Source of the DNA: an uncultured Gammaproteobacteria bacterium
GTDB taxonomy: Bacteria; Patescibacteriota; Microgenomatia; Daviesbacterales; UBA10151
Assembly (NCBI GenBank): GCA_964415615.1
Contig: CAYQAW010000002.1
Location: 1,897 to 65,896, forward strand
Length of the DNA: 64,000 nt
Direction: 5' to 3'
A program made the position numbers and the translations under genes. Under the pieces are notes generated by a model, which had not been told where the DNA came from, did no database searches, and worked only from the letters and a program-made list of their open reading frames with translations. Of this stretch, positions 1,976 through 11,201 are shown piece after piece. Each line of letters begins with the position of its first letter. Within the stretch, counting starts at the first letter, position 1.

Positions 1976-2470
1976 ATGGATATTCAGGTAATTTGTGGGG
2001 TAGGCAGTGGCAGGACCACACTGTCTGCTTTTGATGCTGCTTTAAAAGATGCTGGAGTTTACAACTATAATTTAATTACCCTGTCTTCTATTATTCCTCC
2101 TGGATCTATTGTTTCCAAGATGAAAAGATATAATTCCCCTCATGCTGAATATGGTCATAAATTATATGTCATCAAAGCAGAGATCAGGAGTGAAGAAGCA
2201 GGCAAATTTATAGCTGCAGGGTTGGGTTGGTACCAAATAGAAGACGGCAGGGGTATGTTTGTAGAACATGAGATTAAAGGGGAGACCAGGCTGGCAGTAG
2301 AGTCTGAAATTGAAAGCAGAATCAGTAGATCTTTAAAGGATTTATGCAGGTTTAGACACATTAAGTTTGATCCTCAAAAGGCTAAATCAGCTACTTCCAT
2401 TACCCAAATCAAGGATCACCCTACCTCTGTTTTAGTTTTAGCTGTTTATCAATCAGAAGGCTGGGAATAA
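1976..2470 (+). CDS. pdaD: Pyruvoyl-dependent arginine decarboxylase (PdaD family).
   Basis: About 165 aa with an N-terminal GxGxG-like motif. It has the family's self-cleavage Ser-Ser site in the context NLITLSSIIPPG and the pattern typical of the PvlArgDC family. Confidence 0.7.
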   Translation: MDIQVICGVGSGRTTLSAFDAALKDAGVYNYNLITLSSIIPPGSIVSKMKRYNSPHAEYGHKLYVIKAEIRSEEAGKFIAAGLGWYQIEDGRGMFVEHEIKGETRLAVESEIESRISRSLKDLCRFRHIKFDPQKAKSATSITQIKDHPTSVLVLAVYQSEGWE

Positions 2471-4942: not shown

Positions 4943-4991
4943 ATTTACAAGACGACTATCCCATTTTTATGATGCCTAGGCCATGACAAGT

Positions 4992-5010
4992 TTGTCAGGA
5001 AAGCTGACAA
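4992..5010. promoter_or_regulatory. 7-bp inverted repeat TTGTCAG-N5-CTGACAA plus a direct TGACAAG repeat immediately upstream of the HTH-STAND gene; candidate operator.
   Basis: Seen directly at 4984-5011 (TGACAAG TTTGTCAG GAAAG CTGACAAG). A TAGAAT -10-like hexamer sits at 5020-5025. The downstream gene starts with an HTH-like domain. Confidence 0.3.
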
Positions 5011-5032
5011 GCTTTGTGGTAGAATCGCCCTA

Positions 5033-7087
5033 ATGATTGGAGCAGCAGATAGGTTTAGAGTGCTTTTTAAAAAGTATCGATTAAAATCTGAAATTTCTAC
5101 CCTTTCGCAGTTGGGCCGTTTGCTTGCTGAAAAAGGGTTTGTCTACGAAGATAGTATTTTTTCCCACTGGCAAAAGGGGACCAGGATTCCTCAAAACCGC
5201 ACAGTTATCTTGAAACTTCTTGAAATTTTCGTTGAACGGAAAGCTATTGATTCACTTAGTCAAGCTAATGAGCTTCTAGCATCAGCAAATCAAGGATATT
5301 TATCTGAAAAAGAGTTACAGAAAATTCCAATAAAACTTAGTAACCCAATATTTCAAGTTCCTAATGAGATTACTGATTTTCAAGGAAGAGAAAAAATTAT
5401 AGATGAACTTATTAATAAAAAGAACATTGAAGGAAAAATTATACTCATTCATGGCGCTGCCGGAGTGGGGAAGACAGCATTGGCAATAAAACTAGGTCAT
5501 CTTTTGAAAGATAGGTTTAAGGACGGGGTTTTATGGTACAAGGTTGAAGAAGATAATATCATGGATATTCTTCTTTCAATAGCGCATTTATTTGGTGAAG
5601 ATATAAGTAATATCAATAATTTACAAGTTAGAGCAACTATTGTTAGATCGTTGCTTGCTGCTAAAAATGTCTTACTCTTCCTTGATAGTGGTGAATTATA
5701 TGATGATATCCATTTACTGATACCTAATTCTCCAGTTTGTACAACTATTATTACATCTCAAAAAGGTCATTTGAAAACCCCGATTCGTTTTATAGATATT
5801 CAGTTAAATCCCTTTACTGACAGTGAGGTTTTATCTCTTTTTAAGGATATTTTAAAAGATAAATTTAAAAAAAATAGTCCAAATGATCTTCTTAAAGTTA
5901 CCAAGAAGGTGGAGAACCTGCCACTGGCTGTTCATATTTTGGCTAGACAGTTATTACATTCAAAACTTAGCGCTATTCAGTTTCCCAGTTTGCTTAGTAA
6001 TGAAAAGTCTGTTTTTCAAGATTTGTATTATGAAGATAAAAATTTATATGCAGCTATTGCTGCCAGTTATAACAAACTTGATAGTATAATGAAATCAGTT
6101 CTAGTATCTGCTTCTATATTTAAAGGAAAAGATTTTTCCCTCAAAACCATAGGGTATATAAATGGTCTTTCAATACCAGCTACAACCAAAACTCTACAAG
6201 ATCTGGTTGATCTTTCTCTTATTGAACATTCATTAAAAAATAGATACAGAATACATCCGGCAATAAAAGATTTTGTCCGAAACAAATTGGATTACCCTCG
6301 ATCATCATATTTAATGATTATTGCTATCTTCATATTTTCCTTTTTCGTCACATGGTGGGTTTTTCTTCAGCTGTTTATTGATAAAAATAACTTCATGTAC
6401 CATATTTTTTCAGCAACCTATGGTCTGATGGCGGTTTTTGGAGGAATCTGGGGAATCCATACCTCATTGAATTGGGGAGGTTTTAAAACACTTATTGGCA
6501 AAGCTATTTTTATGTTTTCATTGGGGTTTTTTGCACAAGTGTTTGGACAAATTGTTTATTCTTATTATTCTATTTTCCATCAGATAAAAGCACCGTATCC
6601 TTCTATTGGAGATATTGGTTATTTCGGTACAATCCCTTTTTACATATATGGAGTAATTTTGCTGGCAAAATCTTCAGGCATCAAGATTAATATTCAATCC
6701 TTCAAGAAGAAAATGATTGCTTTGGTAATTCCAATTATTATACTGACAATAGGTTATATTCTTTTCTTACGAAATTACACTTTTGATTGGAGTAATCCTT
6801 TGAAAGTTTTCCTGGATTTTGGGTATCCTTTCGGTGAAGCAATTTATATCTCTATTGCCATAATAACATTTATTTTTTCAAGAAATATCATGGATGGTAT
6901 TTTGAGGTCAAAAGCATTATTAGTATTGGTTGCGCTTGTTTTCCAATTTCTTGCTGACTATGTCTTTCTATATAACTCGAGCAGTTTTTATTCTGGAAAT
7001 TATATGGATTTTATTTATCTTACTGCTTATTTCGTAATGACAGTAGCACTCTTAAGTTTAAGGTCGCTTCATGTCAAGGTGTATTAA
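5033..7087 (+). CDS. Multidomain protein: N-terminal HTH-like region, NB-ARC/STAND-type P-loop NTPase, and a C-terminal polytopic membrane domain (about 250 aa, 6-7 TM).
   Basis: Walker A in the context ILIHGAAGVGKTALA. A hhhhD Walker B-like LLFLDSGE. A TTR-like ITSQK. The C-terminal domain is clearly paralogous to the stand-alone ORF 8341..9141; shared blocks are WGG(F/W), Y(Y/S)SI, PYPS(I/F)(G/A)D(I/A)GYF, VFLDFGYP(F/L)GE and FQFL(A/T)(D/E)Y. Confidence 0.7.
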   Translation: MIGAADRFRVLFKKYRLKSEISTLSQLGRLLAEKGFVYEDSIFSHWQKGTRIPQNRTVILKLLEIFVERKAIDSLSQANELLASANQGYLSEKELQKIPIKLSNPIFQVPNEITDFQGREKIIDELINKKNIEGKIILIHGAAGVGKTALAIKLGHLLKDRFKDGVLWYKVEEDNIMDILLSIAHLFGEDISNINNLQVRATIVRSLLAAKNVLLFLDSGELYDDIHLLIPNSPVCTTIITSQKGHLKTPIRFIDIQLNPFTDSEVLSLFKDILKDKFKKNSPNDLLKVTKKVENLPLAVHILARQLLHSKLSAIQFPSLLSNEKSVFQDLYYEDKNLYAAIAASYNKLDSIMKSVLVSASIFKGKDFSLKTIGYINGLSIPATTKTLQDLVDLSLIEHSLKNRYRIHPAIKDFVRNKLDYPRSSYLMIIAIFIFSFFVTWWVFLQLFIDKNNFMYHIFSATYGLMAVFGGIWGIHTSLNWGGFKTLIGKAIFMFSLGFFAQVFGQIVYSYYSIFHQIKAPYPSIGDIGYFGTIPFYIYGVILLAKSSGIKINIQSFKKKMIALVIPIIILTIGYILFLRNYTFDWSNPLKVFLDFGYPFGEAIYISIAIITFIFSRNIMDGILRSKALLVLVALVFQFLADYVFLYNSSSFYSGNYMDFIYLTAYFVMTVALLSLRSLHVKVY

Positions 7088-7121
7088 ACACAAGATTATT
7101 ATGTGATAATATTTATATCAA

Positions 7122-7502
7122 ATGGATGTTGTAATAAATTTTTTCTCCAAAACTTGGGGATTATTCTGGTCTATCTGGCCCAAAAGTTTTTGGTTTTTGG
7201 TACTTGGATCAGCGGTAGCTGAAGCTATTTCTGTAACTGTTTTTAGGGTAGTGGGCAATAGAGGGTGGTTTGCTATTTTAGGTTATGTTTTGGGTTTTCT
7301 AACAGTTGCTTTTTATGCAGAAAGTCAGAAATATTCAACTTTATCTGCGTCATATCCTATATGGTTAGCAGCGGTGGCAGTATTGGTTAGTTTCAGCGCT
7401 TTTTTTATCTTTCGTGAGCAAGTCTCTCTAAAATGGGTCATAGGGTTTATACTAACAATAGTAGGAATACTGCTTATACAAACTTCGATTCCCGAAAAAT
7501 AG
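7122..7502 (+). CDS. Small 4-TM membrane protein, DMT/EamA/SMR-like.
   Basis: 126 aa with four hydrophobic helices. It sits between the STAND-membrane fusion and the methyltransferase. Confidence 0.45.
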   Translation: MDVVINFFSKTWGLFWSIWPKSFWFLVLGSAVAEAISVTVFRVVGNRGWFAILGYVLGFLTVAFYAESQKYSTLSASYPIWLAAVAVLVSFSAFFIFREQVSLKWVIGFILTIVGILLIQTSIPEK

Positions 7503-7506
7503 TATT

Positions 7507-8295
7507 ATGCACAAAGTTGTAATTGAACCGGAATTCGAAAGCTTTGAGCCAAAACATTACTTGAAAGCTTATTATTCTAAAGTTGGTTCTGAAAATCTTA
7601 GTCTTTTGGAATTTTTCTCAAAGATTTATCAAGATATACCAAAAGGTTCAATTTTGCTTGAATTTGGAGGTGGGCCGACAATATATCCCTTAATAACTGC
7701 AGCTTCAAAAGTTAAAGCTATTCATTTTGCAGATTATTTAGATACAAATTTGGATGAAATTAGATTATGGAAGAATAATTCTGAAGAAGCTTTCAATTGG
7801 CGCAAATATTTCAAAAAAGCTCTATTCCTAGAAGGAAATAAAAGGGTGACAAAAAAACAGATTATTGCCAGAGAAAAATTGGTAAGAAAGAAAATTACGA
7901 GATTTTTACATTGTGATGCATTTAAAAAAGATCCAATAGATAAAAAATACCGGAATTTCTATGATATTATAAATACAAATTTTGTCACAGAGTCTATTAC
8001 AGATAATAAATATATTTGGGAAAGTCTGATTGCTAATGTTTGTTCAATGCTAACAAAAGATGGAATACTTATTATGACAGCAATTAAAGATGCAAAATAT
8101 TACCACGTTGGTAAAAAAACTTTTCCTGCTACCAGGATTATAGAAGAGGATATAATCCAAGTTTTAACAAAGCTGGGATTTGAGGAGACGAGTTTTTCTT
8201 CATACTCTATACCAGCTGAAGTTGAGGATGAACAGTTAGTCGGTTATACAGGATATAAAGGGATAATTTTCTTAAAGGCAAAAAATAGAGGTTAA
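7507..8295 (+). CDS. NNMT/PNMT/TEMT-family SAM-dependent small-molecule N-methyltransferase homolog.
   Basis: N-terminal FEPKHYLKAYYS parallels the family signature F-P-DYL--YY. It is followed by the SAM motif I in the context LLEFGGGPTIYPL (compare animal NNMT D-G-SGPTIYQL) and an acidic motif II context HFADYLDTNLDEI. Confidence 0.6.
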   Translation: MHKVVIEPEFESFEPKHYLKAYYSKVGSENLSLLEFFSKIYQDIPKGSILLEFGGGPTIYPLITAASKVKAIHFADYLDTNLDEIRLWKNNSEEAFNWRKYFKKALFLEGNKRVTKKQIIAREKLVRKKITRFLHCDAFKKDPIDKKYRNFYDIINTNFVTESITDNKYIWESLIANVCSMLTKDGILIMTAIKDAKYYHVGKKTFPATRIIEEDIIQVLTKLGFEETSFSSYSIPAEVEDEQLVGYTGYKGIIFLKAKNRG

Positions 8296-8340
8296 TCTAT
8301 CGCTTGCTTTTTAAAAAACTTTAATCTATTCTAAATTTAG

Positions 8341-9141
8341 ATGTTAAAAACAATAATAGAATCAAAATTTACTTATTGGATTGTTTTTCTTTATCTTCTG
8401 ACGTTCGCTTGGTGGGTATATCTTCAATTAGGTAATTTAACCAATACCATGCAAGCTTACCTATTCGATTGGTTTTATGGTCTAATCGGTTTTAGTGGTG
8501 CATTGTATGGTCTTTATATTTCTTTTAAAAAATGGGGTGGTTGGAATAGTATTTTAGGAAGGGGGTTAATTTTATTACCTTTTGGATTGCTCGGTCAATG
8601 GTTTGGTTTGCAGGTTTGGACATATTATAATGTGATAGCAAAAGTTGAAACACCTTATCCTTCTTTTGCAGATGCTGGTTATTTTGCACTTATACCAGCG
8701 TATACTTTAGGCGCCTTAATGTTTGCCTGGGCAGCAGGGGCAAAATTTTCACTTAAAACTAAAAGAGGAAAAATAGGAGCGTTATTTATTCCTTTAATTG
8801 CACTTGCTTTTGCTTACGTTCTTTTTCTAAAAGATATAGGTTTTGATACTTCTGATCTGGTAAAAACATTTTTAGATTTTGGGTATCCTTTAGGAGAAAT
8901 CTTGCCAGTTTCAATAGCCTTATTCACCTTGACGTTGTCGAGAAGCCTTTTGGGTGGCACCATGAGAAGTAGGATTTTATATTTGATAGGCGCTTTTTTC
9001 TTCCAATTTTTAACTGAGTATGGTTTTTTATACGCTGCAGGAGCAGGTACATATGTTAATGGTGGATGGAATGACTTAATGTATTTTACTTCCTATGCAA
9101 TTATGAGTATTGGTTTAATTTCATTTAAATCATACGATTAA
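8341..9141 (+). CDS. Polytopic membrane protein; stand-alone paralog of the C-terminal membrane domain of ORF 5033..7087.
   Basis: Colinear similarity over about 250 aa to residues roughly 430-680 of the fusion protein (blocks listed for that feature). Confidence 0.6.
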   Translation: MLKTIIESKFTYWIVFLYLLTFAWWVYLQLGNLTNTMQAYLFDWFYGLIGFSGALYGLYISFKKWGGWNSILGRGLILLPFGLLGQWFGLQVWTYYNVIAKVETPYPSFADAGYFALIPAYTLGALMFAWAAGAKFSLKTKRGKIGALFIPLIALAFAYVLFLKDIGFDTSDLVKTFLDFGYPLGEILPVSIALFTLTLSRSLLGGTMRSRILYLIGAFFFQFLTEYGFLYAAGAGTYVNGGWNDLMYFTSYAIMSIGLISFKSYD

Positions 9142-9146
9142 AACTT

Positions 9147-9425
9147 ATGGATCCGTATGTTTTGGCAGTCAGCAGGATAATAAAGGAGCAGCAATCGATC
9201 ATTGGACCGATTGCTCTAGATCAGGCCAAAAAAGTGGCTGGGCTGGAATTTAGTGGAGTAGATGATGTTAAAATTACTGGTAATAAAAAGGAAGTCCTAA
9301 CAAATCTGGTTAATCAGTTTGCCAAACTTTTTGGACAAGCCTCAGTTGAAGTATGCAAAGAAGCTTTTTCTCAAGTTTCAGATAAAATTAATCCCTTAGA
9401 AGTACCTGATATTCTCAAAAACTGA
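9147..9425 (+). CDS. Hypothetical protein (92 aa).
   Basis: ORF with good coding look. Tightly spaced after the preceding gene. No recognisable motif. Confidence 0.35.
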   Translation: MDPYVLAVSRIIKEQQSIIGPIALDQAKKVAGLEFSGVDDVKITGNKKEVLTNLVNQFAKLFGQASVEVCKEAFSQVSDKINPLEVPDILKN

Positions 9426-9449: not shown

Positions 9450-10793
9450 ATGGTCTCTGAAGATAAAATATCTGCTTTTTTAAAGCTTCAACAACTTGTT
9501 TTAGATATAGAAGATAGCTCTAAATTATTAGAACAAGTTTTGCCACAAGTATTTGTAGCGCTTCAGTCAATTGGTTGCCCCTATATCTTTTTATCCGCCA
9601 TGTTTACTGATGAGAGCGGGCAAGTTAAGCAATCATTTTTTGTTGATTCATCCGGAAATAAGTCTCCTATAAACCAAAACGGTATATTTCAAAAAGGCAG
9701 CGAGTGGGAAATGAAGGTGATGTATGGTGAAGCAGCTGTTGTTTCTGATGTAGCTTATTTTATTAATTCTTCTTACCCAAAGTTTCATGAAATATATTCT
9801 TTACTAGTTTTACCAATACAACATGCCCGTGATCTCAGAGGTATTTTGGTATTAGGAAGCTCTAAAAATGCTTCTCAAATTGATTCAGAAGAAATTGAGT
9901 TTGGAGAAATGTTAACAAAGCTTGTTGATCTTTCCTTTAGGCTACAAGATACAGAAAGTTCTCTGCTTAATATCACTCAACAGGTTTACGAAATGAATGC
10001 TAAATTGCATCAGCTGGATAAACTAAAAGATGATTTTGTCTCAGTTGCCTCACACGAACTCCGGACTCCTATGACTGCGATCCGTTCTTATGCCTGGATG
10101 GCTTTGCACAAATCAGATGTTCCTCTGTCAGAGAAACTGGAGAAATATTTGATCAGAGTACTGATTTCTACAGAACGTTTGATTAATCTGGTCAACGACA
10201 TGTTGAATGTTTCCAGAATTGAATCAGGCAGTATTGAGATAAGTCCAGAGCCGGTGGATCTTTTGTTGCTTATCAAAGATATTGTTGATGAAGTTTACTA
10301 CTCAAAAGCGCGGGAGAAAGTTATCCAATTTGTAGTGCTGGAGAAAAAGATTCCTAAGGTGTTTGCTGATCCTGAAAAACTCCGACAGGTCCTCCTTAAT
10401 TTAGTAGGAAATTCATTAAAGTTTACGCCTGATGGAGGAAAAATTGTTTTTGATTTTTTTAGTGATGGGAAGCTAGTAGAAACTTCTGTTTCAGATACTG
10501 GAGTAGGTATATCAAAAGAGGATATGAGTCAGTTATTCCATAAATTTGGCAGGCTGGATAATTCTTATACAGCATCTGCAACTTCTGGTGGAACAGGTTT
10601 GGGTCTTTTTATATCCAAAAACCTGGTAGAACTCATGCATGGCAGGATCTGGGTTGTCTCAGAAGGATTAGGGAAAGGATCAACTTTTAATGTGTCTTTG
10701 CCTGTTGCTGCTCCTGAGGTTTTGAAAGAAGCAGAAAAATATAAAGTAAGGGCGCAGGGCGAAGCAAAGGGGCTGGAACCAGTAGCAATATGA
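9450..10793 (+). CDS. Sensor histidine kinase with a soluble N-terminal (GAF-like) sensor region, HisKA and HATPase_c.
   Basis: H-box in the context SHELRTPMTAI. N-box NLVGNSLKFT. G-boxes DTGVGI and GGTGLGL. No obvious TM segments. Confidence 0.8.
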   Translation: MVSEDKISAFLKLQQLVLDIEDSSKLLEQVLPQVFVALQSIGCPYIFLSAMFTDESGQVKQSFFVDSSGNKSPINQNGIFQKGSEWEMKVMYGEAAVVSDVAYFINSSYPKFHEIYSLLVLPIQHARDLRGILVLGSSKNASQIDSEEIEFGEMLTKLVDLSFRLQDTESSLLNITQQVYEMNAKLHQLDKLKDDFVSVASHELRTPMTAIRSYAWMALHKSDVPLSEKLEKYLIRVLISTERLINLVNDMLNVSRIESGSIEISPEPVDLLLLIKDIVDEVYYSKAREKVIQFVVLEKKIPKVFADPEKLRQVLLNLVGNSLKFTPDGGKIVFDFFSDGKLVETSVSDTGVGISKEDMSQLFHKFGRLDNSYTASATSGGTGLGLFISKNLVELMHGRIWVVSEGLGKGSTFNVSLPVAAPEVLKEAEKYKVRAQGEAKGLEPVAI

Positions 10794-10805
10794 TACAATC
10801 AAATT

Positions 10806-11201
10806 ATGGATAATCAGCAAAAAAAGATCCTTATAGTTGAAGATGATCAATTCTTGAGAGAGTTTTATCAGGAACTTCTGCAGGGAGAACAATATCTGGT
10901 AGAAGTGGCAGCTGATGGGGAAGTGGGTTTAGCAAAGCTTAGAGAAGGCGGTTATAGTCTGGTCATGCTGGATATTATGTTACCCAAAAAGGATGGTTTG
11001 CAAATACTGCGTGAATTAAAAGCTCAACCATCAAGCAATAAAAATGATTCTATTGTGATACTTACCAATCTAGGCCAGGATGCAATCATTAAGGAATGTT
11101 TTAATTTAGGCGCAGATGGGTATTTAATAAAATCTGCCTTAAATCCTGATCAGGTTTTAACAGAGGTTAGAAGTTATTTAGAAAAAAATAATGCCTCTTA
11201 A
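10806..11201 (+). CDS. Single-domain response regulator (CheY-like receiver only).
   Basis: ILIVEDD. The phospho-acceptor Asp is in the context LDIMLPKKDG. A conserved downstream Lys in the context LIKS. 131 aa with no output domain. Confidence 0.8.
   Translation: MDNQQKKILIVEDDQFLREFYQELLQGEQYLVEVAADGEVGLAKLREGGYSLVMLDIMLPKKDGLQILRELKAQPSSNKNDSIVILTNLGQDAIIKECFNLGADGYLIKSALNPDQVLTEVRSYLEKNNAS

Follow-up and report, generated by a model that had tools for sequence, protein, structure and literature searches.

Within the genome of a candidate-phyla-radiation bacterium, one gene joins a putative DNA-binding domain, a STAND NTPase module, and a polytopic membrane domain in a single polypeptide, and a free copy of that membrane domain is encoded close by. 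This arrangement raises the question of whether the locus is built as a sensor or as an effector. We examined a 64-kb stretch of DNA (the window), in which every open reading frame named in an earlier, sequence-only reading was found where that reading had placed it (Table 1). On balance, the evidence leans toward a membrane-embedded, autoregulated STAND transcription factor that, with a split sensor kinase, would control an amine module.

Table 1. Features of the STAND locus (window coordinates; aa numbering of the fusion protein)
Feature	Position	Strand	Description	Basis
Arginine decarboxylase	1976..2470	+	Pyruvoyl-dependent	Pfam PvlArgDC 9.7e-28
Operator	4982..5010	+	29 nt, three half-sites plus degenerate fourth	Sequence, PWM, conservation
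Extended -10	5017..5025	+	TGgTAGAAT	Read from sequence
STAND fusion protein	5033..7087	+	684 aa: N-terminal domain, NB-ARC, membrane domain	
N-terminal domain	5033..5332	+	aa 1-100, putative DNA-binding HTH, five-helix bundle	AF2
NB-ARC (AP-ATPase) module	5345..6292	+	aa ~105-420: nucleotide-binding, helical, winged-helix subdomains	
Walker A	5453-5476		GAAGVGKT, aa 141-148	
Walker B	5672-5686		LLFLD, aa 214-218	
ITSQK			aa 240-244	
GLPL-like	5915-5932		NLPLAV, aa 295-300	
MHD-like	within 6248-6274		RIHP, aa 406-409, with His408	
Membrane domain	6299..7057	+	Eight helices	AF2 helices, homology to 8341..9141
Small membrane protein	7122..7502	+	Four-helix, SMR/DMT-like, candidate cation exporter	Weak EamA/SMR matches, hydropathy
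Methyltransferase	7507..8295	+	NNMT/PNMT/TEMT family, GntF-like	Pfam NNMT_PNMT_TEMT 4.3e-41
Free paralog	8341..9141	+	Free-standing eight-helix membrane domain, 266 aa	
92-aa protein	9147..9425	+	Conserved, soluble; proposed adaptor between free paralog and kinase	
Histidine kinase	9450..10793	+	Soluble; weak GAF-like N terminus, HisKA, HATPase_c	Pfam
Response regulator	10806..11201	+	Single-domain, receiver only	Pfam Response_reg 1.3e-22

The NB-ARC/STAND module proposed for the fusion protein was confirmed by profile search, in which Pfam NB-ARC matched residues 120-347 (E 2.3e-12; 47.2 bits against a cut-off of 23.5) and NCBIfam returned partial matches to AfsR (3e-27) and HaaT (5e-26). By using Foldseek with the AF2 model (pLDDT 84.3), we obtained Apaf-1 as the best match (9.7e-12), followed by plant NRC/ZAR1 and CED-4. 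The three sequence contexts quoted previously (GAAGVGKT, LLFLD, and ITSQK) all fall within this module, which shows invariant columns among orthologues. Within ITSQK, position 243 was taken by eye to be where the TTR motif of NB-ARC has its sensor-I arginine; this protein carries Q there, and orthologues carry Q, R, K, or I. ATP hydrolysis by the module may be atypical. The subdomain fold is common to Apaf-1, CED-4, and plant NLR proteins (Foldseek 1e-11 to 1e-6; TM-score 0.71 on target for the NRC1 NB-ARC), as are the P-loop, Walker B, GLPL, and MHD-like His motifs. However, the output of those proteins is CARD, CC, or TIR signalling and their sensors are WD40 or LRR domains, whereas the output here would be DNA binding and the sensor would lie in the membrane.

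The N-terminal region had been described as HTH-like. A predicted five-helix bundle (aa 4-18, 24-33, 40-48, 56-68, and 75-84), a weak profile match to a POU-specific domain in the PDB (E 0.08), and association with a conserved operator are consistent with this description, but sequence profiles do not support it: there was no Pfam HTH match at E≤10, hhalign against neighboring XRE HTH domains gave E 0.04 and a probability of 1.3%, and an HMM of the domain failed to pick up those XRE domains. The domain is highly conserved, with Y15, R16, L17, S41, I42, S44, W46, Q47, G49, R51, and P53 invariant, and we infer that it binds DNA.

The palindrome TTGTCAG-N5-CTGACAA at 4992-5010, put forward as the site for this domain, is unique within the window. 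Taken by itself it is within chance expectation, with a match of up to two mismatches in 22 of 100 shuffles; we take it as real because it is conserved in orthologous loci, which was decisive. It proved to be part of a larger operator comprising the half-sites ATGACA (4983-4988), TGTCAG (4993-4998), and CTGACA (5004-5009), spaced 10 and 11 bp from start to start, and a degenerate fourth, TGTGG (5015-5019), that overlaps the -10 region. With an operator PWM (25 loci, 30.4 bits), the window operator scores 43.0 bits, and no other site in the 64 kb reaches 10 bits. Across 439 kb of loci, 40 sites score at least 16 bits versus about 0.35 per shuffle. Sixteen of these sites were not among the 24 used to train the PWM. 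Some of the 16 precede second STAND genes or other genes with this N-terminal domain, and in L003 and L006 such sites precede the cargo genes immediately 3′ of the STAND stop codon. Two further loci (L012 and L023) carry near-matches to the operator core at the same position.

The operator stands upstream of almost every gene with this N-terminal domain in 25 other genomes, irrespective of C-terminal architecture, and the STAND gene is the sole gene with the domain in the window. The same operator also precedes genes for MmyB-like XRE regulators in related loci, and therefore the binder could be another protein. In most loci, TGnTAnAAT lies 9-10 nt past the operator with a start codon 6-12 nt further on. 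The ATG at 5033 stands 7 nt past the extended -10, and thus the STAND mRNA is probably leaderless. A generic -35/-10 scan misses this promoter because it has no -35 box at the canonical spacing.

The C-terminal membrane domain, previously estimated at about 250 aa, has eight predicted helices (aa 423-675) and is connected to the winged-helix subdomain by a linker of only five residues (YPRSS), the membrane domain coming 15 residues past His408. That 8341..9141 is a paralog of this domain only was borne out by BLASTP (4e-59; 36% identity over 271 aa, fusion aa 411-678 versus paralog aa 2-264), and the shared blocks were present as quoted. Conserved outer-face motifs of the fusion are PYPSIGDIGYF (6593-6625), VFLDFGYPFGE (6806-6838), and GNYMDFIY (6995-7018), and a comparison of 48 members, fused as well as free, shows conserved columns. 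The loops rich in positive charge (KKWGG, KFSLKTKRGK, and SRSLLGGTMRSR) lie on the cytoplasmic NB-ARC side, which therefore places the PYPSxxDxGY, FLDFGYPxGE, and D245 motifs on the outer face. The membrane domain fused to NB-ARC is previously undescribed. The same module is joined directly to the same N-terminal domain without an NTPase in 13 cluster representatives (P0313 has this architecture, with matches of 2e-28 and 3e-45), is fused to a TrmB HTH in P0253, and occurs as tandem pairs; TPR replaces it in sister proteins (61 of the proteins in hand). Judged by its architectures, the module behaves as an input domain.

The eight-helix domain might instead be an enzyme or transporter (e.g., a lipid hydrolase of the YhhN/TMEM86 kind or a permease for amines) that NB-ARC regulates, or uses only as a co-sensor via substrate flux in the manner of LysP for CadC. 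Its three conserved outer-face aspartates, accompanied by aromatic residues, would suit a cation site; Foldseek against viral models aligned it with a Tupanvirus 'lysoplasmalogenase' (TM-score 0.66 on target, 262 columns); and transporters and LPG_synthase_C-like lipid-modifying genes are frequent neighbors. We nevertheless judge this possibility unlikely. The domain matched neither YhhN nor any transporter family in Pfam or NCBIfam up to E 10, nor any PDB sequence, the cluster already encodes separate EamA or SMR transporters, and it has been fused repeatedly to DNA-binding domains, as input domains typically are.

Between the two membrane-domain genes, the product of 7122..7502 has the four helices expected of the DMT-like protein claimed previously (hydropathy), but its family matches (EamA 6e-4; SMR EbrB 3.6e-7) are weak and under the curated cut-offs of Pfam and NCBIfam. 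An orthologue occurs in L015 (49% identity), and a positional equivalent adjoins the methyltransferase in L011. The predicted methyltransferase was upheld, with NCBIfam GntF adding a match at 6.9e-38 (130 bits against a cut-off of 60); its predicted substrate class is small amines, and a family member occupies the equivalent place in L005 and L011. The two-component pair likewise stood, and the kinase has no convincing membrane segment by hydropathy. Intergenic gaps are 4-56 nt, with no terminator-like site found in these gaps on the + strand. The genes probably form a tightly packed operon to at least 11201, driven by the operator-overlapping promoter and ordered as regulator, SMR-like exporter, amine N-methyltransferase, free membrane paralog, 92-aa protein, soluble histidine kinase, and receiver-only regulator.

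A check of gene neighborhoods revealed that the STAND fusion lies within 6 kb of a triplet of paralog, 92-aa protein, and kinase in 16 related genomes (L001, L003, L005, L006, L009, L011, L013, L015 in rearranged form, L016, L018-L020, L022, and L023, with the cluster partly present in L028 and L032). Most of the loci compared also have a receiver-only gene close to the cluster. The genes in between vary: cargo includes amino-acid decarboxylases of four unrelated families (PvlArgDC, AdoMet_dc, OKR_DC_1, and Orn_Arg_deC_N), EamA and SMR-like transporters, and NNMT/PNMT amine N-methyltransferases. PvlArgDC orthologues lie directly 3′ of the STAND gene in L001, L003, L016, L018, and L019, whereas the window arginine decarboxylase, found inside the cluster elsewhere, sits 2.5 kb upstream. 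No operator site of at least 10 bits was found near it by PWM scan; this decarboxylase without an operator, and the presence of only one operator in the window, count against the explanation we favor. Neither the conserved cluster nor the amine-metabolism theme of the intervening genes had been remarked on in the sequence-only reading.

We also considered whether the two paralog-bearing units are functionally unrelated neighbors through inherited Microgenomates synteny, with the membrane domain a mere anchor. All loci belong to one bacterial radiation, the STAND gene lacks a nearby paralog/kinase triplet in five of them (L007, L012, L024, L025, and L027), and the fused and free paralogs, with a mean identity of 32% and separate clades, diverged long ago. 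This reading is nonetheless quite improbable. The linkage outlasts cargo changes, inversion (L015 and L032), unrelated outer flanks that vary from locus to locus, and replacement of the STAND class (a long-linker class in L018-L023; HTH-domain genes without NB-ARC in L026 and L030). Moreover, an anchor needs no invariant polar motifs, yet fused and free copies both keep them.

The 92-aa gene is a part of the system that had not been recorded before. In at least 17 loci it comes after the paralog gene, and its product matched no known family. The kinase comes after this pair in related loci too. In other genomes, the paralog C terminus is fused to the 92-aa protein (P0327, 2e-14; P0334, 1e-15), and our census comprises nine such fusions plus P0334, which carries a C-terminal extension. 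The evidence joining the 92-aa protein to the kinase is their adjacency, and an HMM of the kinase N terminus found no match in the extensions that the fused proteins carry.

AfsR (Streptomyces SARP-NB-ARC-TPR), GutR (Bacillus), and MalT (E. coli), a class named non-immune STANDs (PMC13581612), likewise combine a DNA-binding domain, a STAND NTPase, and a C-terminal ligand sensor, and AfsR and GutR carry the DNA-binding domain at the N terminus, as here. The AfsR model matches the NB-ARC region over aa 91-417, but its score of 95 bits against a cut-off of 1430 means that the protein is no AfsR equivalog. TPR-sensor sister proteins, as in that class, live in the same genomes. However, the DNA-binding domain here is of neither SARP nor LuxR type, and whereas the known sensors are soluble TPR or SUPR repeats, this one is an integral eight-helix membrane domain, and therefore the whole switch would be tethered to the membrane.

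In CadC/ToxR-type one-component regulators, membrane spanning and DNA binding also reside in one polypeptide. CadC governs an amino-acid decarboxylase and an amine antiporter (cadBA) with a polytopic permease as co-sensor (PMC3096576, PMC7888679), and the recurring neighbors here are likewise decarboxylases and transporters. There is no homology, however: CadC combines an OmpR-type winged helix with a single membrane helix and a periplasmic sensor and lacks an NTPase, whereas the STAND protein has eight helices with almost no mass outside the cytoplasm and an NB-ARC switch between its two end domains. Bacterial 7TM input modules (7TMR-DISM, 7TMR-HD, and 5TMR-LYT) and eukaryotic 7TM receptors are also among the closest known systems.

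The sensor and transcription side of the sensor-or-effector system proposed earlier is thus favored by operator conservation and by fusion of the module to DNA-binding domains. An antiphage or conflict system (Avs/bNACHT-like), in which invader sensing by NB-ARC would lead the membrane domain to damage membranes, is very improbable: STAND NTPases with membrane-spanning effectors are known in defence, where TM is among the effector types (PMC13581612), and L001 has NTase/HEPN toxin-antitoxin cassettes within its cluster, but PADLOC models match none of five proteins, the locus is syntenic, single-copy across many genomes, and next to housekeeping genes rather than in a variable island, the membrane domain holds the C-terminal sensor place taken by TPR in sister proteins and is elsewhere fused to DNA-binding domains alone, and a conserved operator lies at the STAND gene's own promoter.

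In the autoregulated transcription factor that we favor, the five-helix domain would bind the operator (4982-5019) overlapping its own promoter, NB-ARC would serve as a nucleotide-driven switch and oligomerization unit, and the eight-helix domain would stand in for the soluble sensor (TPR or WD40) that ordinary STAND regulators carry. Because the joint has only five residues and lies close to His408, a membrane signal could pass straight to the ADP-holding part of the switch, and oligomerization would set several DNA-binding heads on half-sites one helical turn apart. The free paralog and 92-aa protein most likely give the soluble kinase the membrane sensor that it lacks. The data show the domain identities, the paralogy, the domain fusions, and conservation of both operator and cluster; we infer how the sensors are coupled, in which direction regulation works, and what kind of signal is received. 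A single type of sensor module would then feed one-component and two-component pathways in parallel, and the function under control would be to make, methylate, and export a small cationic amine that derives from arginine, ornithine, or lysine.

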